Assembly: GCA_903854455.1 (NCBI GenBank)
Contig: CAINWJ010000010.1
Coordinates: 1-50,194 of the forward strand
DNA from: Candidatus Peribacteria bacterium
Lineage (GTDB): Bacteria; Patescibacteriota; Gracilibacteria; Peribacterales; Peribacteraceae
DNA: 50,194 nt
Reading direction: 5' to 3'
Shown: positions 8,826 to 49,369 of the stretch, one piece after another
How positions within the stretch are numbered: the stretch's first letter is position 1
Layout: the number at the start of each line of letters is the position of its first letter
The notes under the pieces: model-generated
Seen by the model: the letters and a program-made list of their open reading frames with translations, nothing else
The model's database searches: none
Told to the model about the DNA's origin: nothing
Program-made: the position numbers and the translations under genes

Positions 8826-8833
8826 GTGGATCT

Positions 8834-8839
8834 ATTTTA
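8834..8839 (-). promoter_or_regulatory. -10-like TAAAAT 8 nt upstream of the trmB-like copy 2 start
   Basis: The minus strand reads gagTAAAATagatccacATG. Confidence 0.25.
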
Positions 8840-9004
8840 CTCTATTTGTAAAATCTTTTCTACAGAAAATAGAATCAGTATTTTGGCTTAGAATAAATGA
8901 TAAATCATCAATAACTAATTTGCTGTTGGACGGATTTTCCATATCGGAGGACAATTGTCTCGTACAAACGAAAAGGCAGAAGCCACATCTTTCCCCCTAT
9001 TTTT

Positions 9005-10690: not shown

Positions 10691-10697
10691 TGCCATC

Positions 10698-10747
10698 GTA
10701 GAGACGCCCCGCCGGGGCGTCTCTACCTGCGGGGCAGCAGCCCCGCG
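10698..10747. repeat. 29-nt perfect palindrome GTAGAGACGCCCCGCCGGGGCGTCTCTAC followed by hairpin GCGGGGC-agca-GCCCCGC
   Basis: Palindrome at 10698-10726 and second hairpin at 10727-10747, immediately after the P4 stop. Related copies lie at 14228-14292, 16006-16098 and 42842-42864. Confidence 0.8.
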
Positions 10748-10763
10748 CTACATTCATTCATTT

Positions 10764-12419: not shown

Positions 12420-12429
12420 TTCATTCTCC

Positions 12430-12445
12430 GCGGAAAGCATTCCGC
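12430..12445 (+). terminator. short hairpin GCGGAA-agca-TTCCGC after P5
   Basis: Read directly. It has the same AGCA loop as the GCGGGGC-agca-GCCCCGC hairpins. No T-tract follows. Confidence 0.25.
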
Positions 12446-12462
12446 TCCCTTGTCAGAAAGTT

Positions 12463-14133: not shown

Positions 14134-14165
14134 CAACTATAGTCAGGTCGCTTCGGACGGCAGGC

Positions 14166-14225
14166 GCACCCGAGAGGACGGAGAGTGTGTATTGCGAACA
14201 ATGTTATTTGGCCTCCGTCTATTAA
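14166..14225 (+). pseudogene. fossil 3' end (last ~19 codons plus stop) of a Cys-rich paralog
   Basis: gca ccc gag agg acg gag agt gtg tat tgc gaa caa tgt tat ttg gcc tcc gtc tat taa translates to APERTESVYCEQCYLASVY*. This is nearly the same as the real P7 end (SPERPESVYCEQCYLAAVY*, 15940-15998). It lies 30 nt after the P6 stop with no gene body attached. Confidence 0.75.
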
Positions 14226-14227
14226 TG

Positions 14228-14292
14228 CTGCGGGGCAGCAGCCCCGCGTTTATCTCCATTCATTATCTCGAAGACGCCCCGGCGGGGCGTCT
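14228..14292. repeat. junction repeat unit: GCGGGGC-agca-GCCCCGC hairpin, spacer, then AGACGCCCCGGCGGGGCGTCT palindrome
   Basis: Near-identical to 16034-16098. Confidence 0.8.
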
Positions 14293-14309
14293 CTACACCA
14301 CCCAACGTA

Positions 14310-15998: not shown

Positions 15999-16005
15999 TT
16001 TTTTT

Positions 16006-16098
16006 GTAGAGACGCCCGATCGGGCGTCTCTACCTGCGGGGCAGCAGCCCCGCGTTTATCTTCATTCATTATCTCGAAGACGCCCCGGCGGGGCGTCT
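16006..16098. repeat. junction repeat unit: palindrome GTAGAGACGCCCGATCGGGCGTCTCTAC, GCGGGGC-agca-GCCCCGC hairpin, and second palindrome AGACGCCCCGGCGGGGCGTCT
   Basis: Elements at 16006-16033, 16034-16054 and 16078-16098, read directly. Confidence 0.8.
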
Positions 16099-16115
16099 CT
16101 ACACCACCCAACGTT

Positions 16116-17771: not shown

Positions 17772-18223
17772 TCTCTTACCTCCTCTGTCACAACAATCCC
17801 TCGTTCTCTTGCGATACGCAATACTTCGTCTAGAACATGTCGTGTTACACAATGATGCCTATCGGTATGGTGTTCTTGGTTCTGAGCATCAACATGTATG
17901 TGTAAGTATTCTTCATCGGCTGACTCTTCTTCCTGCGAAATGGAGAAGTAGCGTGTTTCTGCTGTTGGCGATCGATCGTTTCGCACGGTGCTACTGGGAA
18001 CACTTTGAATACATTCAGGGTTGGCATCGCTTACAAGAAATATTTTTTTGAGGAGCAGGGCAACAGACTCTTTTATGCTTAGGACTGCCTCATCGGAGCC
18101 AATTAATCCATATCCAATCGTGATAATGGTCAAGCCATGAGCTCTCTCTGCGACTATTCCAGGGACGTTTGATTGCATAGGATATGCGAGTGTGGTTGCA
18201 TTTTTTGTTGTAGCCAACACCAC
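17768..18223 (-). CDS. hypothetical protein (151 aa), no motif recognised
   Basis: It is the only sizeable ORF in the 17.8-18.2 kb gap and is convergent with P8. No family recognised, and the true start is uncertain. Confidence 0.35.
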   Translation of the reverse strand: MVLATTKNATTLAYPMQSNVPGIVAERAHGLTIITIGYGLIGSDEAVLSIKESVALLLKKIFLVSDANPECIQSVPSSTVRNDRSPTAETRYFSISQEEESADEEYLHIHVDAQNQEHHTDRHHCVTRHVLDEVLRIARERGIVVTEEVRD

Positions 18224-33740: not shown

Positions 33741-33835
33741 GAATGTAGAATGTAAAATGTACAATGTAGAATGCGCAAGCGTGTTTCGAAGGTTTATGCA
33801 ATCATTCTACATTCTAAATTCTACATTTTACATTC
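33741..33835. repeat. heptamer-array hairpin H1: (AATGTAN)x4.7, 29-nt loop, inverted (NTACATT) array
   Basis: Left arm GAATGTAGAATGTAAAATGTACAATGTAGAATG at 33741-33773. Right arm CATTCTACATTCTAAATTCTACATTTTACATTC at 33803-33835. Confidence 0.85.
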
Positions 33836-33851
33836 TGCCCATTTTCCTTCC

Positions 33852-34520
33852 GTGCGTACCTGCGCCATCATCCCCGCCTACAACGAAGCCACCCGCATAG
33901 GTGCAGTGATCCGCGGTGCGCGTCAGTATGTGGATGAGGTGATTGTTGTCATCGACGGTTCTACGGATGACTCAGCTGCGGTTGCACGGACCGAGGGTGC
34001 GCGGGTGATCGTGCATCCGGAGAACTGCGGTGCCGGGGCGGCGACCATGACCGGTCTGGAGGCGGCTCGCACATTGGGCTATGAGATTGCCATCACCGTC
34101 GATGCCGACGGACAGCACGCCACTGCAGACATCCCGAAGCTGATTGCCGCTCTGTCCGCGGGTGCCGATCTCGCCATCGCCAATCGCTTCGGGGGCAAGA
34201 AGACATCCATTCCCTTCATTCGCCGGATCTTCAATGGCATCGGCAATGCGGTGACGTTCTTCGCGACCGGCATCTGGCTTCCGGATACGCAGTGCGGGTT
34301 CAAGGCATTCGGTCCGCGTGCACTCCGTCAGGTCGATCTCCGCATGTCCGGCTTCGAGTTCTGCACCGAGATCATTCGCGAAGCCGCCCGTTTCCGGTGG
34401 AACGTGACCTCCGTTCCGTCGCGAGTGGTGTATTCTGAGTACACGCTTGCCAAGGGACAGTCCTTTGCGAGCGGCATTCACACCGCCGCCAAGATCCTCC
34501 TTAGATCCTTCCTCCGCTAA
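33852..34520 (+). CDS. family 2 glycosyltransferase (polyprenol-phosphate sugar transferase-like)
   Basis: CAIIPAYNEATRIGAVI...VIVVIDGSTDDS...TVDADGQH. The ORF-track start at 33771 translates the H1 repeat, so I propose the GTG at 33852. Confidence 0.85.
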   Translation: MRTCAIIPAYNEATRIGAVIRGARQYVDEVIVVIDGSTDDSAAVARTEGARVIVHPENCGAGAATMTGLEAARTLGYEIAITVDADGQHATADIPKLIAALSAGADLAIANRFGGKKTSIPFIRRIFNGIGNAVTFFATGIWLPDTQCGFKAFGPRALRQVDLRMSGFEFCTEIIREAARFRWNVTSVPSRVVYSEYTLAKGQSFASGIHTAAKILLRSFLR

Positions 34521-34522
34521 TC

Positions 34523-34900
34523 ATGATCATCGAGTTCACTCCGTACCAAATCATCGTTCCCATCTTCTCCATCATCATGGTGGCGTATGCCTGGAGCCTG
34601 GTCGGGCGTCAGCGCAAGACTATCTGGGAGGGCATGCTCTGGACCGTTTTCTGGCTGGGTATTGCTTATGTCGCATTCCAGCCCAATAGCCTGCAGTACT
34701 TGAGTTCGCTTACCGGCATCAAGAAGCATGAGAACGCCGCGACGTTCACGGCGATCGTCATCCTCTTCTTTACGGTGTTCTACATGGTCATCCGCATCGA
34801 GGCGCTGGAGCAGCGGTTGACGAGGGTGGTGAGGGATAAAGCATTGAAAGAAGCAGGGATTCATGGAAAGAACGGTGATTCGGAGGAATGTAAAATGTAG
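34523..34900 (+). CDS. DUF2304-like small membrane protein (usual partner of this GT2 type)
   Basis: 125 aa with 3-4 TM segments. It starts 2 nt after the GT2 stop. Its pattern and position match the GT2-DUF2304 pairing as I recall it. Confidence 0.65.
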   Translation: MIIEFTPYQIIVPIFSIIMVAYAWSLVGRQRKTIWEGMLWTVFWLGIAYVAFQPNSLQYLSSLTGIKKHENAATFTAIVILFFTVFYMVIRIEALEQRLTRVVRDKALKEAGIHGKNGDSEECKM

Positions 34901-34977
34901 AATGTATAATGTAGAATGACGTTTGTTGCTCTTGGAGTAGCGAAATTCTACATTCTACATTTTCCATTCTACATTCC
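34885..34977. repeat. heptamer-array hairpin H2
   Basis: Left arm GGAATGTAAAATGTAGAATGTATAATGTAGAATG at 34885-34918. Loop ACGTTTGTTGCTCTTGGAGTAGCGA. Right arm AATTCTACATTCTACATTTTCCATTCTACATTCC at 34944-34977. Confidence 0.85.
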
Positions 34978-34978
34978 G

Positions 34979-36172
34979 TTGCCCACTCTTCTCCTCATCT
35001 CCCCTTACTGGAAGGAAGACCACCGTTGGATGGTCAGTTCCTACAAATTGGCTGAGCTGTGGCAGAGGCTCGGGTACCGGGTGGTGGTGATGTGTATGGG
35101 ACGAACGGGGGATCAGGGACCCTTCGGCTTCGCTCAGGGCGAGTCAGGGATCAGGGATCAGGATGGGAAAAATATTCAAAATGAGCGCGAGGCTGCTGCC
35201 CCGCAGGCACCAGAAATTCACCGTATTCCTGATTTCTTCATTCCCGATCCTTGGAACTACGGCATCGCGTTTGGATTTGCGGGGAAAGCGCTGAAGCTGG
35301 CACGAGAGATCAAGCCGGATGTGATTGTTGTGAATAAAGTCTTGTTCTGGAGCTCATTCGCCTTGCTCCGTTTACGATTGGCAGGATTCAAGGTGATCCT
35401 CACGACGGATGCGCTCGTCGGCATGACGTGGTGGCCGAGGACGCGCCTCGCCAAGATCGGTGCCGCCATCTACGCATGGACGCTGGGGTGGCTGATACTC
35501 AAGGCGGCAACGCAGGTGGTGTTCTTCCATCCGCAACCCCCTACCCTCCTCCGAAAACTTGGTATCGCGGAGAAATCGATTGTTATTCCTACGGGGATTG
35601 ATGCTGCGCCTTTTTCCCTCACCCCTGACCCCTCTCCCGATGGGAGAGGGGAAGTGGTTGTTACATATATTGGGCGACTGGAATCCGTCAAAGGTGTGGA
35701 GGATTTCGTTGCGGCTGCACTGAAGGTGAAGCGGGATCATCCGGAGCTGACGGTTCAGGTGGTCGGTTGGTCGAAGAAGGATCATCCGCTGGTGGAGGCA
35801 CACAAGGATCAGGTTGTCTTCACGGGTCTGCGTCATGACATCCCGGCGATCCTGGCGGCGACGGATATCTTCGTGCTCCCGAGCTACTCGGAAGGACTCA
35901 GCAATGCGCTAATGGAGGCGATGGCAGCCGGTTGCGCGTGTATAGCAAGCGACGTCGGCGGCAATGCGTTCCTCATCCAAAACGGGATCTCAGGGTTTCT
36001 GTTCCCCACAGGAGACAGGGAAGCACTGGCAGCTCACATTCGCCGACTAGTGGAAGATCCGGCGAAGCGGGAGGCGTTAGGCAGTAGTGCTCGTAAGAGA
36101 ATCATCGAGTACTTCAGTTCGAGTGTTACTGGTAGGCAATGGAGCCGGTTGTTCGGGAGTTTCGGGAACTGA
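34979..36172 (+). CDS. family 4 glycosyltransferase (GT4-1) carrying in-frame repeat insertions
   Basis: C-terminal GT4 pattern VFTGLRHDIPAILAATDIFVLPSYSEGLSNALMEAMAAGCACIASDVGG. A TTG at 34979 gives MPTLLLISPYW. The ORF-track start at 34916 translates the H2 repeat. Confidence 0.8.
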   Translation: MPTLLLISPYWKEDHRWMVSSYKLAELWQRLGYRVVVMCMGRTGDQGPFGFAQGESGIRDQDGKNIQNEREAAAPQAPEIHRIPDFFIPDPWNYGIAFGFAGKALKLAREIKPDVIVVNKVLFWSSFALLRLRLAGFKVILTTDALVGMTWWPRTRLAKIGAAIYAWTLGWLILKAATQVVFFHPQPPTLLRKLGIAEKSIVIPTGIDAAPFSLTPDPSPDGRGEVVVTYIGRLESVKGVEDFVAAALKVKRDHPELTVQVVGWSKKDHPLVEAHKDQVVFTGLRHDIPAILAATDIFVLPSYSEGLSNALMEAMAAGCACIASDVGGNAFLIQNGISGFLFPTGDREALAAHIRRLVEDPAKREALGSSARKRIIEYFSSSVTGRQWSRLFGSFGN

Positions 36173-36406
36173 TTCATTGGGGAGGCTTTCACTCGCAATA
36201 CGCCACAGTACCTCGGCAAGGAAAGCTGACATGTCTTCGAATTCTTTGTATTGCTGACGAGCTATGGCACGGAATTTTTCCACTGCTTGTGATATGGCTT
36301 CGGCATTATGCGCCCCGGACGGCGCAGAGCTTACGTTAGAAACTTCGAGTGCTGCTTCTCTAAGTTCCTTAGAGATAGGAAACTGATTCGGGCTGAGTTT
36401 TTTCAT
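36077..36406 (-). CDS. small hypothetical protein (109 aa); its 3' end overlaps the convergent GT4-1
   Basis: ATG at 36406 with AGGAAA ~12 nt upstream. It fills a 330-nt gap between the GT4 genes. No motif recognised. Confidence 0.3.
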   Translation of the reverse strand: MKKLSPNQFPISKELREAALEVSNVSSAPSGAHNAEAISQAVEKFRAIARQQYKEFEDMSAFLAEVLWRIASESLPNESVPETPEQPAPLPTSNTRTEVLDDSLTSTTA

Positions 36407-36504
36407 GCGCTCATTATTTTCCTGCCGTTCTATACTTACAACATTTTTCTTCTACTGGTGCCAGTAAGGTCTTCCTCTCGCTACAAAGTCATAGTTCGCA
36501 TACC

Positions 36505-37641
36505 ATGCTTTCCATGAAGAGGCACCTCGTTATCCTCTCGGCTTTTCTCTTCCCCTTCCGTTCCGGTGCCGAGGCGATGGTGGAGGAGGTGTCGGTGCGG
36601 CTGACGGATGAGTTTGACGTGACGATTGTGACGGCGCGGTTGAAACGATCACTGCCGAAGCGGGATCATCTTTTACCCCCACCCCCAATCCCTCCCCCGA
36701 GTCCGCTGCGGCGGACGGTCGGGAGAGGGGAGAATGGTGTTCATGTGGTTCGTGTCGGGCTTGGCTTCTCCTTCGATAAGTATTTATTCCCGTTCCTGGC
36801 ACCGTTTGCTGTTTTGCGATTGAAGCCCGACATCATTCACGCGGTGCTGGAATCGTACGCGGGGTTGGCGTTGGTGTTCTGTAAGTGGATCGTGCCGCGG
36901 GCGAAGCGGGTTCTGACACTCCAGAGTACGAATACTTCATTGTTCTTGGGTCCCATTCACCGCTGCGCACACATCATCACCGCGATCAGTTCGGCACTCA
37001 TTGAACGGGCGAAGACGTTCGGTCGGTCGGATGTCGTGCTCATTCCAAACGGCATCGATCTCGCTGCTATCAACCGTCTGTGTACGGAGCATCCCAAGGA
37101 TTCCGGTTGCATCCTCTTCGCGGGGCGACTGGAGCCGATGAAGGGAGTGGATGTGTTGTTCCAGGCATTTGCGAAGGCGATCACCGGTCTGTCGCCGGAT
37201 ATTCATTTGCGCATCGTCGGTGGCGGATCGCAGGAGAAGATGCTCCAGGATCTCGCCAAATCTCTTGAGATCGATCATCGCGTGACGTACACCGGACGCA
37301 TCGACCATCGTGCAGTGCTCGCGGAATTTGCCCGTGCAGAAATCTTCTGCGGACTGTCGCGGAGCGAGGCGCTTGGGAATGTCTTTCTGGAAGCGCAGGC
37401 TTCGGGTTGTGCCGTGATCGCGACGAACATCGGCGGGATTCCGGAGATCGTGAAGGATCAGGAGAGCGGATTGCTTGTCCCGCCAGATGATATCGATGCT
37501 TCTGCAAAGGCGATCAAATCACTGCTGGCTGATCCCGGATTGCGTGCGAGATTGTCGATAGCAGCGAAGAAGGGGATGGAGCGGTATGATTGGCAGGTTA
37601 TTTCCATGGCTTATACAAGAGCATTATCAGGTGGTGTATGA
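36505..37641 (+). CDS. family 4 glycosyltransferase (GT4-2) carrying an in-frame repeat insertion
   Basis: ILFAGRLEPMKGVDVL...EIFCGLSRSEALGNVFLEAQASGCAVIATNIGGIPEIV. Confidence 0.85.
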   Translation: MLSMKRHLVILSAFLFPFRSGAEAMVEEVSVRLTDEFDVTIVTARLKRSLPKRDHLLPPPPIPPPSPLRRTVGRGENGVHVVRVGLGFSFDKYLFPFLAPFAVLRLKPDIIHAVLESYAGLALVFCKWIVPRAKRVLTLQSTNTSLFLGPIHRCAHIITAISSALIERAKTFGRSDVVLIPNGIDLAAINRLCTEHPKDSGCILFAGRLEPMKGVDVLFQAFAKAITGLSPDIHLRIVGGGSQEKMLQDLAKSLEIDHRVTYTGRIDHRAVLAEFARAEIFCGLSRSEALGNVFLEAQASGCAVIATNIGGIPEIVKDQESGLLVPPDDIDASAKAIKSLLADPGLRARLSIAAKKGMERYDWQVISMAYTRALSGGV

Positions 37642-38070: not shown

Positions 38071-38970
38071 TTATTCGATAATTCCTCTGATCGTCTCCAC
38101 ACAGTGATCGACACTTTCATTGACCAGCATGTGATCGAACAGGTGTGCGTGGGAGTCCAGGGCTTCCAGGTGTGATTTTGCATTCTTGATTTGCTCTGCG
38201 ATCTGCAGTTCGGAATCTTCACGCGAGCGCAAGCGGTGGAGTAATGCCGAGAGCATTCTGCGGTGAGATGTCCCCGGTGGGAGCAGTCCGCAGCTTAAAA
38301 TTGTCCTTCGTCCGAGAGACTTCGCCAGTCCTTCCAGAAGATGAATGTCGGTCGTGACGACGGGCAGTTTCTTCTTCTGCCAGATCAGGTCGATGTCTTT
38401 CCTGCGGTAACCCGCGCTGTACTGACCGCTGTCGGTCAACGTCGAGTGTGCGACGATCTCGCCGCTCTCGATCATTGCCTGGAACTTTGTTTCCGATACG
38501 ACAATGTGCGGTTCTGTGTGTGCGCTCTTCAGTTTGCGCGTTGTCACCATCGGTACCTGCTCCACGACGCTGGAGAACATGCTGAGCAGTGCCTTGGAGA
38601 TGGTGGTTTTGCCAACACCCGACGGTCCCGTCAGTGCCAACACGTAGGTGCGGACGGTGAAGAGTGGGGTTGCGACCGGGACCACGACTTCGTACTTGAG
38701 ATCGTTGATGAAGAGTCCGTTCTCCATTGTTCGGATCTTCCTCATTCGTGGAGCGACGATGGCTCCTATGGCAGGTGGCGCGCTCTCCGGCGTCATCTGT
38801 GCCATCACTTTCGTTCCATCTTCCTTCTCGATCAGCGCAACGGTATAGGCATCCGATCCGAAGCCTTTCGGAGGATTGTGGATGGTCGTGAAGCTCAGAA
38901 TCGTGCCGCGGAGCAGCGGAGTTTTGCTGAGAGCTTGGGTGCGGCGGTGGAGGGAAGGGATACGATCCAA
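38071..38970 (-). CDS. fusion: DUF35-like OB-fold domain (thiolase/HMGS scaffold type, no Zn ribbon) plus guanylate-kinase-like P-loop domain
   Basis: The N-terminal LRGTILSFTTIHNPPKGFGSDAYTVALIEKEDGTKVMAQMT matches the DUF35 OB pattern. The C-terminal LTGPSGVGKTTISKALL...VTTRKLK... is collinear with Gmk. The start is a TTG at 38970 and is uncertain. Confidence 0.75.
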   Translation of the reverse strand: MDRIPSLHRRTQALSKTPLLRGTILSFTTIHNPPKGFGSDAYTVALIEKEDGTKVMAQMTPESAPPAIGAIVAPRMRKIRTMENGLFINDLKYEVVVPVATPLFTVRTYVLALTGPSGVGKTTISKALLSMFSSVVEQVPMVTTRKLKSAHTEPHIVVSETKFQAMIESGEIVAHSTLTDSGQYSAGYRRKDIDLIWQKKKLPVVTTDIHLLEGLAKSLGRRTILSCGLLPPGTSHRRMLSALLHRLRSREDSELQIAEQIKNAKSHLEALDSHAHLFDHMLVNESVDHCVETIRGIIE

Positions 38971-39074
38971 TGTAGAATTTAGAATGTAGAATGTAGAATG
39001 GAAGAAGGCTGAGAAAGGTCGTTGAGCTGCATAGAAAGCATCATTTTACATTCTACATTATACATTTTACATTC
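38968..39074. repeat. heptamer-array hairpin H3
   Basis: Left arm CAATGTAGAATTTAGAATGTAGAATGTAGAATGG at 38968-39001. Right arm CATTTTACATTCTACATTATACATTTTACATTC at 39042-39074. It lies between the thiolase stop and the next gene's start. Confidence 0.85.
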
Positions 39075-39076
39075 GG

Positions 39077-40216
39077 TCAGATGCTCTCTAGCAGGTGAAT
39101 CGTGCACGTTGCCCCAACACCGCCCAAATTGTGTGCCAGGACGCGCTTGGCGTTCTGCACTTGGTTCGGGGCTTGTTTGGTGAGTTGCTTGAAGCAATCC
39201 AGCACCTGCTTTACTCCAGTGGCGCCGATGGGATGACCGCAGGCTTTGAGCCCGCCGCTCGTATTGATGGGGCAGGCACCATCGATGTCGGTATCTCCCT
39301 GTTTATACAGTTGAATGGCTTCGCCTTCGGGTGCGAATCCCATGTCCTCGAGATGGATAAGGGACGCGATGGAGAAGCAGTCGTGGAGTTCGATGGCATC
39401 GATGTCGTTTCGCTTCCAACCGGCTTCACTGAGCGCATTGGCAAATGCCGTCTTCGTGCTGGTAAATGATGTGATGCTTGCACGATCAGTCAGGCTCAGC
39501 GCTTCCGTGCCGATCTGCGATGCGGCAAGGCGAACACCGGATTCATGCTTCGTGGAAAGGATGAGAGCGGCAGCACCGTCGGTGATCGGTGAGCAGTCGA
39601 GGAGCCGCAGCGGATCGGCGACGAGAGGACTCCTAGAAATGGACGCTGCGGGGATTTCTTTCCGGAACTGCGCGTACGGATTCTTCACCGCAGCCTTGTG
39701 GGACAGCGCGGACACCAGGCTCAGATCATCACGACTGAGATTGTACTTGTGCATGTAGGCGGTCGCCGTCAGCGCGAAGATCCCCGGGAACGTGAGGCCG
39801 GAGGGTCCATCCTTCTCCGCATCCGCGGCGTGCATCAGTGCACTCGTGACCAGTTCACCCGCGACATCCGTCAATTTCTCCGCACCGATCACCAGCACCG
39901 TCTCCGCACGATTACTTTCCAGCAGTGCACAAGCTGTGTGAATCGCAATCCCACCGGATGCGCATGCGGCTTCCACTCGGAGTGCCGGAGGATGGTGCGG
40001 CAGCAAACTGGAGCAGAACGTGCCGAGGTGTGCCTGCTCCGCCGTCTCGCCACCCAGCATGTTGCCGATAACCACCGCGTCGATGTCGGTGGGCAGGATC
40101 TTGGTTGCGGCGATGGCTCCGTCCACCGCAGAGCGGATCAGATCAGCCAGGGAAAAATCCCACAGCTCGCCAAACTTGGTTTGGCCTCCTCCGAGGACGT
40201 ACACAGGTTGAAGCAT
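39077..40216 (-). CDS. acetyl-CoA acetyltransferase (thiolase), archaeal/SCP-x-like type
   Basis: 379 aa. It has the catalytic-Cys region VEAACASGGIAIH and the C-terminal GHPIGATGV...NLGGVGATC, and sits next to HMGS and DUF35-like genes. Confidence 0.88.
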   Translation of the reverse strand: MLQPVYVLGGGQTKFGELWDFSLADLIRSAVDGAIAATKILPTDIDAVVIGNMLGGETAEQAHLGTFCSSLLPHHPPALRVEAACASGGIAIHTACALLESNRAETVLVIGAEKLTDVAGELVTSALMHAADAEKDGPSGLTFPGIFALTATAYMHKYNLSRDDLSLVSALSHKAAVKNPYAQFRKEIPAASISRSPLVADPLRLLDCSPITDGAAALILSTKHESGVRLAASQIGTEALSLTDRASITSFTSTKTAFANALSEAGWKRNDIDAIELHDCFSIASLIHLEDMGFAPEGEAIQLYKQGDTDIDGACPINTSGGLKACGHPIGATGVKQVLDCFKQLTKQAPNQVQNAKRVLAHNLGGVGATCTIHLLESI

Positions 40217-40277: not shown

Positions 40278-40625
40278 TTATTGTACGCAGCTTGCTACTG
40301 CATCCCATCCATCGTGGCTTTGATCAGGATTGGCACCCGTTCCATTTGTTCCAGCATGTCTGCTGGGGGGTCGACTATCAAGATAATCTTGATATGGATT
40401 CCGTTCTAATTCTTGAAAGTCTGCAACAGCAGCTGCTGGAGTCTCATTATTACACAGTCTTAACATTGCTTCTCGGGGAAGTGCTACACCATTTACGACT
40501 ATTGTTTCAAATCCACCACAATCACGGTCAACTCGGACATCCTTTTGCTCCGATGTTCTTAACTTATCGGCAATCGCTTGCACAGTCGGTTTTCCTCCTG
40601 GTGTCAGTCCGTTGTTCATAGTCAA
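40278..40625 (-). CDS. small hypothetical protein (115 aa) wedged between HMGS and thiolase
   Basis: ORF in a ~400-nt segment that looks more AT-rich than the flanking enzyme genes. No motif recognised. Confidence 0.4.
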   Translation of the reverse strand: MTMNNGLTPGGKPTVQAIADKLRTSEQKDVRVDRDCGGFETIVVNGVALPREAMLRLCNNETPAAAVADFQELERNPYQDYLDSRPPSRHAGTNGTGANPDQSHDGWDAVASCVQ

Positions 40626-40669: not shown

Positions 40670-41695
40670 TCAAGAATTCCGCATCTGCAAATATTCTCCA
40701 TAACTTAATCTCTTCAATTCCTGTTCCCCTTCCCGCGGCGGGAGGGATTTGCCGTCCTGGAGCATGGTAAACAGGAACGCATCGGCACCGGCACCGGAGC
40801 CGTAGGAGACCAAGAGAATTTTCTGACCTTTGGTGGCTTTTTCGAGGACGAACGTGAGACCGAGTGGTGAGCAGGCGGAGTAGGTGTTGCCGATATGCGG
40901 CACGATGAAGCCAAGTTTGAGTTGTTCTAGCGTGAAGCCGAGACGCTTGGCAGCTGCTGCGGGGAACTTGCCATTGGGCATGTGGAGGACGACGTGAGCG
41001 AAATCTTTGGGTTCCAGCTTCTCTTGTTCCATTATTTTTTTTGCAGCTGTGATGACGTGATGGAAGTACGCCGGTTCACCGGTGAAGCGACCGGCGTGGC
41101 GCGGGTGCTCTTCACCTGCATTGCGCCAGAAGTCCGGCGTGTCGGTGGTGAAGGAGAGTGTTGCATCGATGGAACAGATTCCGGGATTCTTCTTTGTCGG
41201 CATTCCGACGATGAATGCGGCGGCGCCGGCAGCTGCGGAATACTCCAGCGCGTCGCCGGGTTTGGATTGCGCGGTATCCGAGCCGATGGCCATGCCGGCT
41301 TTGATCTGCTTGGACTCCACCATTGATTTGATGACCTGCAGAGCAGCGGTACCGGCTTTGCAGGCGAACTCCAGGTCGGCGGCGTGGCAGAAAGGATTCA
41401 GCTTGAGTGCCGTCGCCAGCATCCCGCTCGTTGGCTTCACGGCGTAGGGGTGACTCTCGGATCCCACGAAGATTGCTGTGATTGATTCTGCATCCATATC
41501 ACCGGTTTCCAGTGCTTGTTTACCGGCTTCCCATGCCAGTGTGAAGGTGTCTTCATCTTTGGATGGGACGGACTTCTCGATGATGCCCAGCCCTTCCGCT
41601 TGCTCACTTCCGCGTTTCCAGTGCTCCGCGATCACTTTGGATTCGATGCGGTTTTTGGGAATGTAGCGGCCGAAGGAGAGGATGGAGGCGGGCAC
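40670..41695 (-). CDS. hydroxymethylglutaryl-CoA synthase, archaeal-type (short, ~340 aa)
   Basis: ILSFGRYIPKNRI...FVGSESHPYAVKPT...LEFACKAGTAAL...HMPNGKFP...IGNTYSAC. Thiolase-fold condensing enzyme pattern in a mevalonate context. Confidence 0.88.
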   Translation of the reverse strand: MPASILSFGRYIPKNRIESKVIAEHWKRGSEQAEGLGIIEKSVPSKDEDTFTLAWEAGKQALETGDMDAESITAIFVGSESHPYAVKPTSGMLATALKLNPFCHAADLEFACKAGTAALQVIKSMVESKQIKAGMAIGSDTAQSKPGDALEYSAAAGAAAFIVGMPTKKNPGICSIDATLSFTTDTPDFWRNAGEEHPRHAGRFTGEPAYFHHVITAAKKIMEQEKLEPKDFAHVVLHMPNGKFPAAAAKRLGFTLEQLKLGFIVPHIGNTYSACSPLGLTFVLEKATKGQKILLVSYGSGAGADAFLFTMLQDGKSLPPREGEQELKRLSYGEYLQMRNS

Positions 41696-41700: not shown

Positions 41701-41733
41701 GGAATGTAGAATGTAGAATGTAGAATGTAAAAT
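41701..41733. repeat. solo heptamer array H4 (no inverted partner)
   Basis: GGAATGTAGAATGTAGAATGTAGAATGTAAAAT, in the HMGS / HAD divergent intergenic region. Confidence 0.8.
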
Positions 41734-42967: not shown

Positions 42968-44161
42968 TTATCGAGCCAAATTTTTATGTGCTTTTGCCAG
43001 ATCGTGACTTGCCTGTGCAGCGAGGACGGAAACCTCTCCGGCTAACACCGCTGCCGCGATCGATTCCGCCAATTGCTTCTTGAGTGACAATCCTCCGCGA
43101 TTCTTGAGGAGCAGATTCAAGCATTGATTTTGTGCAGGGAGCGCAGTGCCTCCACCACGCACACCGACAAGAATGGCAGGCAATCGTACGCTGATCTCCA
43201 AGCTCGAAGGTAGACTTGCCCTGAGCGTAGTCGAAGAGCCGCTTACCGTCGTATCTGCCAGTGATCCTTCCACCACATGCGCGGCATCCTGTCCGGTTGC
43301 CAGGTACAGAGCTGCGATGATGTTGGCAACGTGAAGGTTTGCCCCAATTGCTCCTGCGAGCGTTGAACCGGCTTTCAGTTTGGCATCGGCAGTAGCGAGC
43401 ATGGCTTCCGGTGTCGACTTCAGAACGTCGGTGATCGTCTCCGCTGACAAGATTGTGCTTGCTGTGACTTCCATTCCTCGTCCGCGGTCGTGCGTCCGGC
43501 GGCTCGGCTTCTTGTCCGAGTCGACATTGCCCGCGATGGTCGGACATGCGATGCCTGGGTTACTCCCTGTCACCCAATCGGCAATCGCCTGCGCCGCGAT
43601 GGTCGTCATGTTCATACCCATGGCTTCGCTGGTATCACAGGCGATCGTCAGGAACACGTACTTCTTCTGGATGTCGATGTCGTAACTGAGGATTTTCAGA
43701 TGATTGCTCGTCGCTTCCGCGACCGCTTTCCACTTTCCTTCATTCCCGCGGAGAAGCTGGACGATGGCATCGAGAGAGGCGGATTGATTTCCGGGTGTAA
43801 ACGCAATCGAGCGCGTCATGCCGTGATCAATCGATTTCGTAATAGTGACTCCGCTCACCGATGCAGCCTTACAGCCGCGGTTCACGCTCGCTACCAGCGC
43901 ACCTTCCGTCGTGGCGAGTGGCAAGTGGATTTCCGAGAGCTGATTATTGGAGAACGTCACTTTGAGCGGACCTGCGTACCCTACGGGCACCGGCACCACG
44001 CCGAACATTTGCTCGCAGTTCTTCTTCTCCGATTCTCCCACAACCGATTCCACGGGTGCCGTATTCTTCAAATCAATCTTGAGCTCGCGTTCGATGAGTG
44101 TGCGGCGCTGGTTGATGCGCTGGAAGCTGCTGAGCTGCTCTGGTAGAGATCGAAGATCCAT
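42968..44161 (-). CDS. hmgA: HMG-CoA reductase, class I
   Basis: PLATTEGALVASVNRGCKA, EAMGMNM and GNVDSDKKPS match class I signatures. I use the ATG at 44161 (MDLRSLPEQ), because the ORF-track extension translates the H5 repeat. Confidence 0.9.
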   Translation of the reverse strand: MDLRSLPEQLSSFQRINQRRTLIERELKIDLKNTAPVESVVGESEKKNCEQMFGVVPVPVGYAGPLKVTFSNNQLSEIHLPLATTEGALVASVNRGCKAASVSGVTITKSIDHGMTRSIAFTPGNQSASLDAIVQLLRGNEGKWKAVAEATSNHLKILSYDIDIQKKYVFLTIACDTSEAMGMNMTTIAAQAIADWVTGSNPGIACPTIAGNVDSDKKPSRRTHDRGRGMEVTASTILSAETITDVLKSTPEAMLATADAKLKAGSTLAGAIGANLHVANIIAALYLATGQDAAHVVEGSLADTTVSGSSTTLRASLPSSLEISVRLPAILVGVRGGGTALPAQNQCLNLLLKNRGGLSLKKQLAESIAAAVLAGEVSVLAAQASHDLAKAHKNLAR

Positions 44162-44184
44162 TTTGATGAGAGAGGAGACGAGGG

Positions 44185-44218
44185 TGAATGTAGAATGTAA
44201 AATGTAGAATGTAAAATG
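44185..44218. repeat. solo heptamer array H5 (no inverted partner)
   Basis: TGAATGTAGAATGTAAAATGTAGAATGTAAAATG, in the HMGR / MVK divergent intergenic region. Confidence 0.8.
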
Positions 44219-44252
44219 CCTGGATACGGTACTCTTCTTTGCCAATGATCTC

Positions 44253-45221
44253 ATGACTTCTCCAGTGACTGTTTCAGCGCCGGGCAAACTCATGCTCTTC
44301 GGTGAGCATGCGGTTCTCTTCGGTCAGCCGTGCATCGTGACGGCGGTCGGGCAACGGATGCAGGCGACGGTGACGTTGATCGATGAGCCGATGTTTGAAC
44401 TGGAGGCGCCGGATGTGAAGGTGACGGGATACAGCAAGAAGATTAGTGAGATCGGGACAGGAGAGATTCCCAAGGGTGCCAAGTTCGTCGAGCAGGCGGT
44501 CAAGAATTTCATCGCGAAGTTCGGCAATCTTAAAGGTGGTATTCGCATTGCAACGAAGTCCGAATTCTCATCCGAGTTCGGGTTCGGTTCATCGTCAGCG
44601 TCGACGGTTTGCGTGATCGGCGCGTTGTTGCAATTAACCAAAGGGATGATCGATCCTCGCGCCGTCTTCGATCTCGCGTACAAGACCGTTCTGGATATTC
44701 AGGGCAAGGGTTCCGGTTACGACATCGCTTCGGCGGTCTTCGGCGGAACATTGCTTTACCAGGCTGGAGGTAAGGTAATCGAGCCTATCGACGTGAAAGA
44801 GATTCCGCTGATCATCGGTTACAGTGGCATCAAGTATGAGACGGTGAAGGTGATCGACGAGGTGAAGAGGCGGCATGATCGGCATCCGGAGATGATCGAC
44901 GGAGTGTATCGATCGATTGGCGCATTGATCCCAGCTGCGCTTCAAGCATTGAAGCAACCGGATTGGGTGCGGCTGGGTGAACTGATGGATATGAATCAGG
45001 GATTCCTGGAAGTGCTGGGTGTCAGCAATCTCAAGTTGTCATCAATGATTCATGCGGCGCGCGAAGCGGGAGCGCTGGGTGCGAAGATTTCGGGGTCGGG
45101 AAAAGGAGATTGCATGATAGGGGTCGGGGTCAGGGTCGGGGTCAGGGAGGCTATAGAAAGAACCGGAGGGAAGGTGATAGATGTGTCGTGTAATGTTGAA
45201 GGGTTGAGGATTGAGGCATAA
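44253..45221 (+). CDS. mvk: mevalonate kinase (GHMP family)
   Basis: SAPGKLMLFGEHAVLFGQP (the GEHAV motif is typical of MVK), the GHMP motif EFGFGSSSAST, and C-terminal GAKISGSGKGDC. Confidence 0.88.
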   Translation: MTSPVTVSAPGKLMLFGEHAVLFGQPCIVTAVGQRMQATVTLIDEPMFELEAPDVKVTGYSKKISEIGTGEIPKGAKFVEQAVKNFIAKFGNLKGGIRIATKSEFSSEFGFGSSSASTVCVIGALLQLTKGMIDPRAVFDLAYKTVLDIQGKGSGYDIASAVFGGTLLYQAGGKVIEPIDVKEIPLIIGYSGIKYETVKVIDEVKRRHDRHPEMIDGVYRSIGALIPAALQALKQPDWVRLGELMDMNQGFLEVLGVSNLKLSSMIHAAREAGALGAKISGSGKGDCMIGVGVRVGVREAIERTGGKVIDVSCNVEGLRIEA

Positions 45222-45286: not shown

Positions 45287-46261
45287 ATGCCCAAAGCTAC
45301 CTCCATCGCACCGACGAACATTGCGTTCATCAAGTACATGGGCAGGAAGGACGAGGCTCTACGATTGCCGGAGAATGCAAGTGTATCCATGTGTCTCGAT
45401 CACCTGCTTACGACGACGACGGTCGAATTTTCTCCGACATTGACGCTGGACAGTATTACCATCAATGGTGAACAAGAGGATGGAGAGGCAAGTCGTGTCA
45501 TCAAACACTTGGACCGCATCCGGAAGCTTGCGAAGATCGATCATCGAGCGAAGGTGGTAAGCCAGAACAATTTTCCGACGGGTACCGGGCTCTCATCATC
45601 TTCATCGGGATTTGCCGCACTGACGCTTGCCGGTTGCAAGGCCGCAGGATTGGATTTGAATCAACGTGAACTTTCGATTCTCGCTCGTCAGGGATCCGGC
45701 TCCGCTTGCCGGTCGGTTCCTGACGGATTCGTTGAGTGGGGCGATGCCGATACTAGTGAGGAATCGTACGGGAAGACGATTTTTGCGCCGGATCATTGGG
45801 ACATCGCCGATGTCGTCGCCATCGTGAGTACTGGACGTAAGACAGTGAAAAGTTCTACCGCACATCAATCCGTCGTTGACGGTCCGTATTATCGTACGCG
45901 GATCAATCGCATGGCGGAGAAGGTGCAGCGGTGCAAAGAATTAATTCTTGCGAAGGATTTTCTTTCGTTCGGTACGTTGTGTGAGGAGGAGGCAATGGAT
46001 CTCCATGTGATTTTTATGAGTGCAGGGATCATTTACCTGACTCCGCAGAGCTTGGAGCTCATCAAGCTGGTGCCGCAGTGGCGCGCGGAAGGATTACCTG
46101 TTTATTTCACGCTCAATACCGGTCAGGATGTTCATCTTTTATGTGAGAAGAAGGACGCGAAGGTGGTGCAGGACAAGCTGAAAGGATTGGATTTCGTGCG
46201 GGAGGTGATCGTGAATGAGCCAGGGAAGGGCGCAAGAATGAGCGCAAAGCATCTGTTTTAA
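45287..46261 (+). CDS. mvaD: diphosphomevalonate decarboxylase (GHMP family)
   Basis: APTNIAFIKYMGRKD...NNFPTGTGLSSSSSGFAAL...ARQGSGSACRSV. From sequence alone I cannot distinguish it from a phosphomevalonate decarboxylase. Confidence 0.85.
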   Translation: MPKATSIAPTNIAFIKYMGRKDEALRLPENASVSMCLDHLLTTTTVEFSPTLTLDSITINGEQEDGEASRVIKHLDRIRKLAKIDHRAKVVSQNNFPTGTGLSSSSSGFAALTLAGCKAAGLDLNQRELSILARQGSGSACRSVPDGFVEWGDADTSEESYGKTIFAPDHWDIADVVAIVSTGRKTVKSSTAHQSVVDGPYYRTRINRMAEKVQRCKELILAKDFLSFGTLCEEEAMDLHVIFMSAGIIYLTPQSLELIKLVPQWRAEGLPVYFTLNTGQDVHLLCEKKDAKVVQDKLKGLDFVREVIVNEPGKGARMSAKHLF

Positions 46262-46368: not shown

Positions 46369-47247
46369 TCAAATCACCAATATCATTCCTCCTCCTCCCG
46401 TTCTCGCCCCTGCGCCCAGGACTTTTCCGGCACCATCTTTCGCTTCAATCTCCGCAATGATTTTCCGCGCTTCCGGCGTTACGACGCCCAGTGCCATTTG
46501 AGCGCGGTGGTGATCGCGCATTACGGTTTTCAGTGATTCTCCGGCGATGATGCGTTCGGTACATTTGCCGATGGTTTCAATGGCTTCACGTACGGATCCG
46601 GGAAGCGGCGTCCCGGCTGCGGAAAGTGGAAATGATTCATAGTTCGATCGCACCCACGCTACCAGCTCAGGCGTCGTCTCATTTGGCGTGCCCGTGTCGA
46701 TTAAACGCGAATCGACAAGAAGATTCGTCGGAAGATTTATTGCTTTCGGCGGGGAACCTTTCTTGAACAAGATCGGTTTCTCTTCCCAGATGACTGCGAA
46801 ATCCAGTCCGCTGTGACCGGGATTAACGGCGTCTTCGATTTTCAAGGCTGTGTCACGGCAATCTTCTCCAAGGAGGCAACGGCACAGCGCGATCACAAGT
46901 GCGGTCGAGGAGCCCATGCCTTTCCGCAGCGGAAGACTGGATTCGATTCGGAGTATTCCTTGCAGGTGATCATTGCGATGCTTCAGTGCCAGTACCGCTA
47001 TTTTATTTGCATAATCAATCCATGGATTTGGAGTATTTGGCCACTCTATCGTGACACTGGGTTTCCCAATTCCCAATTCCCAATTCCCAATTCCTTCGAA
47101 TGTTACCGTCATTCTCTCCTTCGATGGCACTGCGATTCCCGGTTTGCCGAATACGACGGCGTACTCACCGCTCAGGATTATTTTCCCGCAGGCGGAAGCT
47201 CGGTTTACTGGTTTGGTGGTTTGGTGGTTTGGTGGTTTGGTTCTCAT
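46369..47247 (-). CDS. GHMP kinase, phosphomevalonate kinase-like
   Basis: CGKIILSGEYAVVFGKPG (GEYAV is typical of PMK rather than MVK), LRKGMGSSTALV and GAGARTGGGG. It is short (292 aa) and carries two tandem-repeat tracts. Confidence 0.7.
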   Translation of the reverse strand: MRTKPPNHQTTKPVNRASACGKIILSGEYAVVFGKPGIAVPSKERMTVTFEGIGNWELGIGKPSVTIEWPNTPNPWIDYANKIAVLALKHRNDHLQGILRIESSLPLRKGMGSSTALVIALCRCLLGEDCRDTALKIEDAVNPGHSGLDFAVIWEEKPILFKKGSPPKAINLPTNLLVDSRLIDTGTPNETTPELVAWVRSNYESFPLSAAGTPLPGSVREAIETIGKCTERIIAGESLKTVMRDHHRAQMALGVVTPEARKIIAEIEAKDGAGKVLGAGARTGGGGMILVI

Positions 47248-47262: not shown

Positions 47263-47973
47263 TTATGAGCCGAACCTTCTTTTCCGTCTCTCGAATTCAT
47301 TCACCGCTTCATCCAGATCTTTTGGTCCGACGTCGGGAAATAGTTTCGGTGAGAAGATCCACTCGGCGTACGTCGACTGCCAGAGGAAAAAGTTGCTGGT
47401 GCGTTGCTCACCGGAGGAACGGAAGATGAGGTCGATATCAGGTAATTCCGGATGATCAAGATTCGGTCGGATGAAGTCGCTGGTCGGCTGGTCGGCTGGT
47501 CGGCTGGTCGCTTTCGTCGTCGCACGGAGGATCTCATCTTTGCCGCCGTAATCGACAGCCAGGTGCAGTGTGAATTCCATTTGATCTTTCGTCAGCTCCT
47601 CCGTTTCTTCGATCAATTTCTTGAGTGATGGCGGGATGCGGTCACGGCGGCCGGAGTGCACGAAGCGGGTTTTTTCTTTCAAGAATGTCTCACCTTCCTT
47701 TCGCAAATACTTCTCGAGCATCCCCATCAACATTTCGATCTCTTTCGGATCGCGTTTCCAGTTTTCGGTCGAGAAGCACCAGACGGTCAGCACCGAGATC
47801 CGCGGATCCTTGCGGCACCACTCGGTCAACGTGCGGAAATTTTCTACTGCCTGCTCATGGCCTTTCCAGACACTCTCGAACTTGTGCGCTTTCGCCCAGC
47901 GGCGGTTGCCGTCGGGGATGATGGCGAGGTGGAGGCGGGAAAGAGTTGGTGGATGAGTCGACATGCTCGGCAA
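47263..47973 (-). CDS. uppS: cis-prenyltransferase (undecaprenyl diphosphate synthase family)
   Basis: HLAIIPDGNRRWAK...FSTENWKR...DLIFRSSGEQRTSNFFLWQSTYAEW. Confidence 0.92.
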   Translation of the reverse strand: MPSMSTHPPTLSRLHLAIIPDGNRRWAKAHKFESVWKGHEQAVENFRTLTEWCRKDPRISVLTVWCFSTENWKRDPKEIEMLMGMLEKYLRKEGETFLKEKTRFVHSGRRDRIPPSLKKLIEETEELTKDQMEFTLHLAVDYGGKDEILRATTKATSRPADQPTSDFIRPNLDHPELPDIDLIFRSSGEQRTSNFFLWQSTYAEWIFSPKLFPDVGPKDLDEAVNEFERRKRRFGS

Positions 47974-48037: not shown

Positions 48038-48559
48038 CTATCCATTTAAAATTTTCAGGAGTCCAATCTTCAGCCAGAGAGCGAAGAAGTCGGGATACTT
48101 CTCGAAATCCCGCAGGAGACTCTGTACATCGATCCATTTCCACGCTTTGACTTCATCGGGATCGGGACGAACAACGACGCCTTTCTCCGCTGTTCCGATC
48201 AATGTCGTGACATGCTCATACTCACTACCTTTTCCATCCGGATCTTTCGCCTGGTAGACGAAGGACGGACCGGGTGTGAGTGGGACTGAGAATCCCAGTT
48301 CTTCCTTGAGCCTCCTCTGACCGGCGGCAATCATTTCCTCCTGCTCATAAGGATGGCTACAGCACGTATTCGCCCAGATTTCCGGGAACAACATCTTCTT
48401 GGTGCTGCGCTGCTGGATGATCAGCGAGGATTTGTCGGGAGAGAAGACATACACCGAGAATGCGCGGTGCAACTTCCCTTCACCGGTGTGCGCGGCGACG
48501 ATCTCCATCGTTCCGGTTTGATGATTCTGCTCGTCGACAAGGATGACGTGGCGGGACAT
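48038..48559 (-). CDS. idi: isopentenyl-diphosphate delta-isomerase, type 1 (Nudix)
   Basis: HRAFSVYVF...WANTCCSHP...AAGQRRLKEELG...YEHV. Confidence 0.9.
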   Translation of the reverse strand: MSRHVILVDEQNHQTGTMEIVAAHTGEGKLHRAFSVYVFSPDKSSLIIQQRSTKKMLFPEIWANTCCSHPYEQEEMIAAGQRRLKEELGFSVPLTPGPSFVYQAKDPDGKGSEYEHVTTLIGTAEKGVVVRPDPDEVKAWKWIDVQSLLRDFEKYPDFFALWLKIGLLKILNG

Positions 48560-48563: not shown

Positions 48564-48656
48564 GGAATGTAGAATTGAAAATGTAAAATGTAAAATTACG
48601 CTACTCCGAAAGCAGCAAAGATCATTCTACATTTTACATTCTACATTTTACATTTC
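48564..48656. repeat. heptamer-array hairpin H6
   Basis: Left arm GGAATGTAGAATTGAAAATGTAAAATGTAAAAT at 48564-48596. Loop TACGCTACTCCGAAAGCAGCAAAGAT. Right arm CATTCTACATTTTACATTCTACATTTTACATTTC at 48623-48656. Confidence 0.85.
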
Positions 48657-48745
48657 GTCGGTTGACACTCTCTCCGATTGTCGCGTTGCCCGCTGCCTTC
48701 TCAAGATTTTTTCTGTATGATCCGTCTAATATTCCCACCACCACT

Positions 48746-49369
48746 ATGATTCATCATCTTCGGTTCCGGAAGCATCATATGGCTATAGCACTTTCCGGAC
48801 TTGCATTCTCTGGGATGGTACTTTCAGTATCGTGGAGCGGGCTCTTCCCTCCACCGTCGAACTTTGGAGGAGTGCCTGTGGCTCTTGCTGCCACTGCAGC
48901 CGGACAGCCGACGTATGAGATGTTCTTGAAGATGGATGGCATCGAAGGCAGTGCGACCGATGATAAGCATCGTGCGCAGATCGTCGTTGATTCCTATGCC
49001 TGGAAGGTCGCCCGTGCAGTTAGCGGTAAGCAGGCCGGGTTTGATTCGTTCGTCGTCACGATGCCTGCAAGCAAAGCATCCCCCGATCTGTTTCTGACGA
49101 CGGCAGCCGGACTCAAAGTCGCCAAGGCGGTGCTGGCCGTGCGCAAGTCCGGTGGCGCGGAAGACTTTCTCAAATGGACGCTCACGGACGTGCGCATCAC
49201 ATCACTGCAGACTGTCGGAAACACCCATGGTGACGGTGTGCAGGATCAGCTGACCCTGAGTGTCGGAAAAGTGGAGATGGAGTACCGCGAACCGTTGCCC
49301 AATGGATCATTCGGACCGGTGTTGAAGAAAGGCTGGGACATCCGGACGGGGAGTGCGGTGCAGTACTGA
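48746..49369 (+). CDS. Hcp-family (T6SS tube protein-like) protein with an N-terminal hydrophobic signal/anchor extension
   Basis: YEMFLKMDGIEGSATDDKHRAQIVVDSYAW...AVLAVRKSGGAEDFLKWTLTDVRITS...LTLSVGKVEMEYREP...KKGWDIRTG is collinear with Hcp1 as I recall it. It is preceded by MAIALSGLAFSGMVLSVSW. The start could be 48746 or 48779. Confidence 0.75.
   Translation: MIHHLRFRKHHMAIALSGLAFSGMVLSVSWSGLFPPPSNFGGVPVALAATAAGQPTYEMFLKMDGIEGSATDDKHRAQIVVDSYAWKVARAVSGKQAGFDSFVVTMPASKASPDLFLTTAAGLKVAKAVLAVRKSGGAEDFLKWTLTDVRITSLQTVGNTHGDGVQDQLTLSVGKVEMEYREPLPNGSFGPVLKKGWDIRTGSAVQY

Follow-up and report, generated by a model that had tools for sequence, protein, structure and literature searches.

A DUF35-type OB fold fused to a guanylate-kinase-like domain in the mevalonate gene cluster of Peribacteria: a candidate kinase of isoprenoid synthesis

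In archaea, a DUF35 protein is the scaffold that bridges acetoacetyl-CoA thiolase and HMG-CoA synthase (HMGS). The alternative mevalonate pathway of Chloroflexi and haloarchaea proceeds through mevalonate kinase (MVK), phosphomevalonate decarboxylase (PMD) and isopentenyl-phosphate kinase (IPK); the product of PMD is isopentenyl phosphate, and a kinase is then required. Fusions of DUF35 to pathway enzymes are known from HMGS-DUF35 in Pseudomonas fluorescens (PMC12960953) and from ChsH2, where the DUF35 domain is joined to a hydratase (PDB 6ok1). We analysed a stretch of 50,194 nucleotides from a Candidatus Peribacteria bacterium (GenBank assembly GCA_903854455.1, contig CAINWJ010000010.1, positions 1 to 50,194), which is called the window throughout. 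Here, an open reading frame (ORF) directly downstream of the genes for an archaeal-type thiolase and HMGS encodes a DUF35-type OB fold fused to a guanylate-kinase (GK)-like domain. In full-text literature searches neither a DUF35-guanylate-kinase fusion nor a GK-like enzyme of the mevalonate pathway was found, in agreement with the initial annotation of the window, which knew of no such fusion. We regard it as likely that the GK-like family is a kinase of the isoprenoid pathway and not a guanylate kinase (Gmk). The fusion has a new domain architecture and probably stands in, non-orthologously, for a known step of the pathway. Its parts are as follows.

38071..38970, minus strand: fusion ORF with a TTG start, 299 amino acids and a stop codon; an N-terminal helix is followed by the DUF35-type OB fold, a short linker and the guanylate-kinase-fold domain
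38680..38910, minus strand: OB-fold domain (DUF35 / OB_ChsH2_C), residues 21-97, from Pfam PF01796, the family profile and the secondary structure of the AlphaFold2 model
38074..38646, minus strand: guanylate-kinase-fold domain, residues 109-299, from Pfam, Foldseek and alignment
38605-38628, minus strand: P-loop GPSGVGKT of the GK domain

Domain structure of the fusion and its departure from guanylate kinase

Both domains scored above the Pfam gathering thresholds. OB_ChsH2_C, the former DUF35 OB domain (PF01796), was found at residues 21-75 with 32.4 bits (cut-off 27.1) and Guanylate_kin (PF00625) at residues 111-299 with 40.1 bits (cut-off 25.2), the latter covering profile positions 5-180 of 182. 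The start of the protein, MDRIP..., agrees with the conserved N-terminus of the family consensus. In the AlphaFold2 model (mean pLDDT 84), a helix of residues 1-20 is followed by a five-stranded OB barrel and an alpha/beta kinase domain, and the linker residues 103-105 are disordered. When the modelled GK domain was superposed on GMP-bound Gmk with Foldseek, the target-normalised TM score was 0.86 (to 1GKY) and the root-mean-square deviation 2.2-2.4 Å. The initial annotation had proposed an OB and guanylate-kinase-like fusion downstream of an archaeal-type thiolase, and both the domain scores and the upstream genes bear this out; the motifs it had quoted (GPSGVGKTT, VTTRKLKSAH, HIV, AHS and SAGY) are all present. 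Since the two domains occur together in over 100 full-length homologues, the fusion is neither a chance event nor an assembly artefact.

Of the solved structures, the one closest to the OB domain in the family-profile search was 6esq_E, the DUF35 protein of the Methanothermococcus thiolase/HMGS complex (E 8e-9, residues 38-124 of 130), which outranked the DUF35 domain of ChsH2. The fusion shares with this archaeal protein the homologous OB fold and the place directly after the archaeal-type HMGS and thiolase genes. It differs in having no zinc ribbon and in an added C-terminal kinase domain of about 190 residues. Residues 1-100 of the window protein contain no cysteine, so that the rubredoxin-like four-cysteine zinc ribbon of canonical DUF35 proteins is absent, as the initial annotation had read from the sequence. 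The family consensus is likewise free of cysteine, and Pfam gave no PF12172 match in the window protein. The fusion is a partial member of DUF35, with the OB fold and without the zinc ribbon.

The fusion is not the housekeeping Gmk: throughout the family other residues stand at the guanine-binding positions, and a closed relative encodes a canonical gmk besides the fusion. In the closed genome of Candidatus Peribacter riflensis (annotation table, PMC4736985, supplement 2) a gmk of 200 residues (gene _213, K00942, 157.7 bits) is present besides a fusion orthologue of 312 residues that adjoins the thiolase gene (gene _643, K00942, 103.7 bits); adk, tmk and pyrH are also encoded. The trivial case that the initial annotation had itself raised, a domain with all Gmk substrate residues that is the only gmk of its genome, is set aside by this relative and by the replaced residues. 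The curated gmk equivalog TIGR03263 gave 63.4 bits on the fusion against a cut-off of 160.45. In a profile search of 1.8 billion representatives the GK-like domain family scored at least 129 bits and canonical guanylate kinases at most 90 bits.

Residue positions were read against what we take to be the E. coli and yeast Gmk sequences. The guanine-contact positions (yeast S34, E69 and S80) are replaced family-wide by Ile/Met, Ser/Ala and Tyr (Tyr in 114 of 114 sequences) and are M141, A174 and Y188 in the window. The P-loop lysine (K14), R38, R41 (as K or R), Y50, Y78 and the lid arginines are kept by the family, which has in addition a 4-residue insertion before the YG motif and conserved arginines gained in the former base pocket (ExRxYGYR loop). 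Compared with Gmk (EC 2.7.4.8; PF00625, TIGR03263), the family therefore shares fold, topology, P-loop and lid arginines and, in most members, the four acceptor-phosphate residues, but differs at Ser34, Glu69 and Ser80, in the insertion, in the equivalog score below the cut-off and in its coexistence with a canonical gmk. In the window copy the P-loop lysine K121 and the lid arginines R246, R248 and R250 are intact. At its acceptor-phosphate site (equivalents of R38, R41, Y50, Y78 and R146), R145 and K148 are kept and H155, A186 and Q260 are substitutions. Judged by these residues, the family appears to keep the fold and the phosphotransfer machinery for a phosphate-bearing acceptor and to have given up guanine recognition. 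The doubt of the initial annotation about GMP binding was well placed for the family as a whole; the divergence that it saw is real, but part of it (H155, A186, Q260) belongs to the window lineage, since most family members keep the Tyr/Tyr/Arg of the acceptor-phosphate site. The label 'guanylate kinase' given by KEGG and JGI inflates the completeness of nucleotide metabolism and hides the link to the pathway.

Cluster types, remodelling of the kinase domain and stand-alone homologues

When one genome per GTDB species was scanned, the fusion was found at 95 loci, 80 of which were retrieved. All 95 are labelled as metagenome-assembled genomes of the candidate phyla radiation, mostly Peribacteria/Peregrinibacteria with a few Kaiserbacteria, Saccharibacteria and unclassified ones. 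Where the sources name the homologues at all, they are Candidatus Peribacteria/Peribacteraceae entries called 'OB-fold domain-containing protein', 'hypothetical protein' or 'guanylate kinase'. The gene order is strongly conserved and usually reads isopentenyl-diphosphate isomerase (IDI), undecaprenyl-diphosphate synthase (UPPS), a divergent MVK-like GHMP kinase (GHMP2), decarboxylase, HMG-CoA reductase (HMGR), HMGS, thiolase and fusion. The last three follow each other in nearly every related locus that reaches far enough upstream.

Cluster types were assigned at the 47 genome loci that span GHMP2 to HMGR. Type A (38 of 47) has only GHMP2 and one decarboxylase, MDD_A, which is about 30% identical to the window decarboxylase, and no MVK; the closed Ca. 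P. riflensis genome is of this type. The window-like type B (7 of 47) has an adjacent canonical MVK and a different decarboxylase, MDD_B. Two loci fit neither type, L025 with no decarboxylase in the retrieved stretch and L075 with an MDD_B-like gene and no MVK. The latter carries an intact GK domain and was considered as a test case between a phosphomevalonate kinase (PMK) and an IPK role, but was dropped as uninformative because a masked or inserted stretch (XXXX) breaks up its specificity motif. For the residue comparison, the type B set comprised ten members, namely the seven typed loci, L035 and L065 (canonical MVK present, GHMP2 not reached) and the window.

In type A the acceptor site is conserved. 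R145, D/E151, Y155, Y186 and R260 (window numbering) are invariant in 38 of 38 loci; at position 148, 37 loci have K or R and one has Met. In type B, acceptor-site residues are substituted in eight of ten loci, the window having H151, H155, A186 and Q260. The association between cluster type and the state of the site gave p ~3e-7 in Fisher's exact test, a value not corrected for phylogeny. In P0123, a further type B cluster, the P-loop lysine is lost by a change from K to T (GVGTST). A change from K to R was seen in P0133 and P0134, and all three keep the HMGS-thiolase-fusion order. The contigs of P0133 and P0134 are short and that of P0126 is ended by a transposase, and these three were not assigned to a type.

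On the thiolase tree, type B loci do not group together but are scattered, and different lineages have different replacement residues, which argues for several independent events. In seven of the ten type B loci the GK domain diverged by 0.05-0.10 more than expected from the thiolase (standard deviation in type A 0.015), with the largest excess, +0.10, in the window. The OB domain of type B showed no such excess, which suggests that the two halves of the protein, scaffold and kinase, differ in their response to the gain of the MVK and decarboxylase pair. For the window GK domain and that of the 84%-identical L001, the ratio of nonsynonymous to synonymous substitution rates (dN/dS) was ~0.09, with dS saturated (~1.5). 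Simple decay of the domain into a pseudogene was rejected on these values; the window GK domain is remodelled rather than abandoned.

The GK-like domain also occurs on its own, in homologues of about 200 residues that have the same family-specific residues and are up to 76% identical to fused GK domains. A UPPS gene directly adjoins seven of eight such homologues, in four different gene arrangements, and an IDI/Nudix gene lies near several of them. No mevalonate gene was found within 10 kb. If the proposed role holds, the stand-alone kinase beside UPPS and IDI could be a salvage step for isopentenyl phosphate in other bacteria of the candidate phyla radiation, and such salvage would explain the source of isopentenyl diphosphate for undecaprenyl phosphate in cells without a visible mevalonate or methylerythritol phosphate pathway. 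A metagenome scan seeded with stand-alone members, with the P-loop pattern as its sole filter, returned eight further fusion loci and unrelated canonical Gmks; six of the eight were long enough for typing and all were type A. With this one filter, the scan yielded no new gene contexts of stand-alone members.

A gene for a small histidine phosphatase (His_Phos_1, 160-210 residues) recurs between or beside UPPS and the stand-alone kinase (L081, L082, L086-L088 and L157-L158). This suggests a kinase/phosphatase pair that acts on the same isoprenoid phosphate pool.

The missing step of the lower pathway and the role of the kinase domain

In five closed Peribacter genomes the mevalonate pathway was called 'near-complete' by the authors, the step after mevalonate 5-phosphate being without an assignment. 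For the closed genome of Ca. P. riflensis only seven terpenoid-backbone genes are listed, and neither a PMK nor a K06981 IPK is among them. The partners in the cluster narrow the choice. The best matches of GHMP2 are all MVKs (KEGG K00869, TIGR00549 and, in the PDB, MVKs only), and in type A as in type B it has intact motifs, although it reads GEY where MVKs typically have GEH. Among solved structures, MDD_A is closest to 6n0x, the Anaerolinea thermophila PMD (AthPMD), which was solved with bound mevalonate 5-phosphate (PMC9254496). The positions that distinguish PMDs from classical diphosphomevalonate decarboxylases (DMDs) were taken in part from Dellas et al., Table 4 (PMC3857490), and in part from the sequence difference between 6n0x and 6n0z. 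MDD_A reads N21/R27/H in 32 of 40 loci, as does wild-type AthPMD, whereas classical DMDs have K/I/M; in 6n0z, an engineered variant of AthPMD, N and H are exchanged for K and M and R27 is unchanged. Since the type A decarboxylase carries the PMD signature, isopentenyl phosphate is the more likely acceptor.

Taken together, the hole in the pathway, the PMD signature, the MVK matches of GHMP2 and the stand-alone homologues next to UPPS favour a kinase of isoprenoid monophosphates. The OB fold would be a DUF35 scaffold that bridges thiolase and HMGS, a role suggested by homology and gene order. In the family as a whole, the GK-fold domain, having lost guanine recognition, would bind ATP and transfer a phosphate onto a phosphate-bearing acceptor. 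Recruited to isoprenoid synthesis, it would convert a monophosphate intermediate to the diphosphate, most likely isopentenyl phosphate to isopentenyl diphosphate and, as the second choice, phosphomevalonate to diphosphomevalonate. The type A route would then resemble that of Chloroflexi and haloarchaea, with the MVK-like GHMP2 followed by the PMD-type decarboxylase and the GK-like kinase. In type B, including the window, a canonical MVK and decarboxylase pair would have been acquired and the GK acceptor site then remodelled. In the window organism the protein probably serves mainly as a scaffold, with a reduced or changed kinase role. We infer both the identity of the substrate and the physical tethering to thiolase and HMGS.

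As a whole, an OB scaffold with a GK-fold kinase recruited as a phosphate-to-diphosphate kinase, most likely an IPK analogue and remodelled in type B, is the best explanation that we can offer, and we hold its chances to be about even. We put forward, with more reserve, that the family is a hitherto unrecognised, non-orthologous IPK of the P-loop NMP-kinase fold. Equally tentative is the fuller proposal that the fused copy completes an MVK, PMD and IPK route in Peribacterales and that the stand-alone copy serves salvage. The known IPK of the alternative mevalonate pathway would catalyse the same reaction at the same position, and its partner decarboxylase shares the AthPMD signature; however, it has the unrelated amino acid kinase (AAK) fold, unlike the P-loop NMP-kinase fold of the GK-like family, whose activity is predicted. 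Among the Pfam and NCBIfam matches of the fusion (Pfam E up to 0.1) there was no PF04275, no AAK-type IPK and no GHMP-type PMK. The family is a concrete candidate for the missing kinase of the Peribacter pathway. If the role is true, non-orthologous displacement of enzymes in central pathways would gain a new example and the DUF35 scaffold a new fusion partner, and the copies adjacent to UPPS might point to salvage of isoprenoid precursors in bacteria with reduced genomes.

The closest rival takes the GK-like domain as a PMK analogue, with GHMP2 as the MVK and the decarboxylase as a classical DMD. PMK is the very step reported missing in the closed genomes, GK chemistry takes a phosphate acceptor, and the arginines gained in the former base pocket could bind a carboxylate. 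A second GHMP kinase gained in type B correlates with the loss of the acceptor site. Moreover, animal PMK (PF04275) also has an NMP-kinase fold and is a precedent for a P-loop enzyme of this fold acting on a monophosphate of the mevalonate pathway, though it has no detectable sequence relationship to the GK-like family (Pfam, E up to 0.1) and its likely substrate differs. The rival meets with the PMD signature of the type A decarboxylase in place of the DMD residues, and with stand-alone homologues beside UPPS and IDI that have no mevalonate gene inside 10 kb, and we consider it unlikely. The initial annotation had thought of a pathway-linked kinase on the model of animal PMK; the pathway link is supported, and the PMK analogue is not the best fit to the decarboxylase and to the stand-alone homologues. 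As a replacement, it would be most parsimonious to let MVK and MDD_B take the place of GK and MDD_A with GHMP2 intact in both types, which would make the GK-like domain a mevalonate 5-kinase, GHMP2 a phosphate-acceptor kinase (PMK- or IPK-like) and the type B MVK the replacement of GK. The GEY motif of GHMP2, which we take to be PMK-like, would suit this. Against it stand the conserved R/K/Y/Y tetrad, which is a phosphate-binding set, the MVK matches of GHMP2 and the UPPS-adjacent copies, which it leaves unexplained; to our knowledge, no enzyme of the GK family phosphorylates a hydroxyl, Gmk and PhnN both using phosphate acceptors. We regard this role as very improbable.

For the window lineage, the GK domain may have ceased to be a pathway enzyme and be retained for the OB domain, as an appendage that binds nucleotides or serves the scaffold in structure or regulation. 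The four substituted acceptor-site residues, the largest GK-specific excess divergence and the loss of the P-loop lysine in P0123, P0133 and P0134, where the gene order is kept, are in line with this, but the window copy has its P-loop and lid arginines intact and the low dN/dS speaks for continued constraint, which leaves it rather improbable. Least credible of all, to the point of being nearly negligible, is a housekeeping nucleotide kinase joined to DUF35 by chance, as a second guanylate kinase or a replacement of cmk. KEGG and JGI label the orthologue as a guanylate kinase, and the closed genome of Ca. P. riflensis has no annotated cmk. Such a kinase would have to coexist with the canonical gmk after losing all guanine-specific contacts and with an equivalog score far below the cut-off, and nucleotide metabolism offers no explanation for the isoprenoid gene context or for the correlation with cluster type. 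A role as dephospho-CoA kinase was rejected, the closed genome being without any genes of CoA biosynthesis.

Several points weigh against the best explanation given above. MDD_B of the window has R21/R27/H at the specificity positions. MDD_B proteins keep R27 and mostly the His, with Arg at the N/K position, and are nearer to AthPMD than MDD_A is. Because MDD_B is PMD-like at two of the three determinants, type B may still need an isopentenyl-phosphate kinase. The purifying selection on the GK domain of the window lineage indicates that the domain is not simply dispensable there. If GHMP2 has one function in both types, parsimony pairs the GK domain with the gained MVK, which is a poor fit to GK chemistry. 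There is also no obvious kinetic rationale for tethering the last kinase of a pathway to its first two enzymes. Finally, the closed Ca. P. riflensis genome encodes an orphan ProB-like protein of the AAK family (gene _735, 265 residues, below the KEGG threshold), and neither proA nor proC is found in its annotation table; this gene could be the true IPK. In the window, Pfam scanning revealed no AAK-family gene among the ORFs scanned, a set that left out several ORFs in 4.5-17.8 kb and three glycosyltransferase-like ORFs at 33771-37641.

Gene neighbourhood in the window

The genes around the fusion are a complete mevalonate/undecaprenyl cluster.

39077..40216, minus strand: archaeal-type acetoacetyl-CoA thiolase (NF004720, 413 bits; HDCF and GHP motifs present)
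40670..41695, minus strand: archaeal-type HMG-CoA synthase (NF003274, 430 bits vs 244)
42968..44293, minus strand: class I HMG-CoA reductase, listed start probably too far upstream
44253..45221, plus strand: canonical mevalonate kinase, MVK-B, with GEHAV motif (TIGR00549, 194 bits vs 163)
45287..46261, plus strand: mevalonate (di)phosphate decarboxylase, MDD_B (TIGR01240, 233 bits; best PDB match A. thermophila PMD 6n0x, 258 bits)
46369..47247, minus strand: divergent MVK-like GHMP kinase, GHMP2, kept in both cluster types
47263..47973, minus strand: undecaprenyl-diphosphate synthase, a cis-prenyltransferase (PF01255, 222 bits)
48038..48559, minus strand: type 1 isopentenyl-diphosphate isomerase, Nudix (NF002995, 149 bits vs 127)

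The longest HMGR ORF has 441 codons and overlaps the start of the divergent MVK gene by 41 bp, and homologues have about 383-407 residues. Since a heptamer array at 44189-44216 falls inside this ORF, the start at 44293 is probably too far upstream, and the length of the homologues places the true one probably near 44180. The heptamer, TTCTACA, forms tandem arrays of 3-4 copies each at 33744-33832, 34889-34959, 41705-41732, 44189-44216 and 48625-48652. A further array at 38971-38998 has an inverted partner at 39044-39064. One array runs exactly up to the TTG codon at which the fusion starts, and there is another just upstream of HMGS. The arrays are confined to intergenic spots and gene starts of the mevalonate and glycosyltransferase region. 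A 14-mer derived from the heptamer matched 23 times in the window with none expected, and the exact 14-mer was not found in any of 162 retrieved loci, L001 included. The arrays may serve as a shared operator or promoter element that is peculiar to this lineage. The window encodes three regulators of the TrmB family.

Between HMGS and thiolase the window has a gap of 454 bp. The ORF115 in this gap (40278-40625, minus strand, 115 residues) is probably not part of the system, as it had no Pfam or NCBIfam match and no homologue in the 80 retrieved loci. In L003 the corresponding gap of 1 kb (7850-8833) contains three unrelated small ORFs of about 90-105 residues, one with an RREML-type start motif, and in several other relatives the gap measures 0.5-1.1 kb. 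In an operon that is tight elsewhere, this gap is a site of variable insertions.

At the other end of the window, positions 1-18000 of the plus strand hold a run of about eight ORFs of ~535-600 residues each, interspersed with TrmB-like regulators (for example 25-1632, 1639-3321, 4500-6182, 9005-10690, 12463-14133, 14310-15998 and 16116-17771). Two of them were scanned and had almost no Pfam matches; the run may encode large proteins, secreted or of the cell surface, that form one paralogous family. An Hcp-like protein (T6SS_HCP) and a TraG/VirD4-like coupling ATPase are encoded on the plus strand at 48662-49369 and 19127-21370, respectively, in this bacterium with a small genome.

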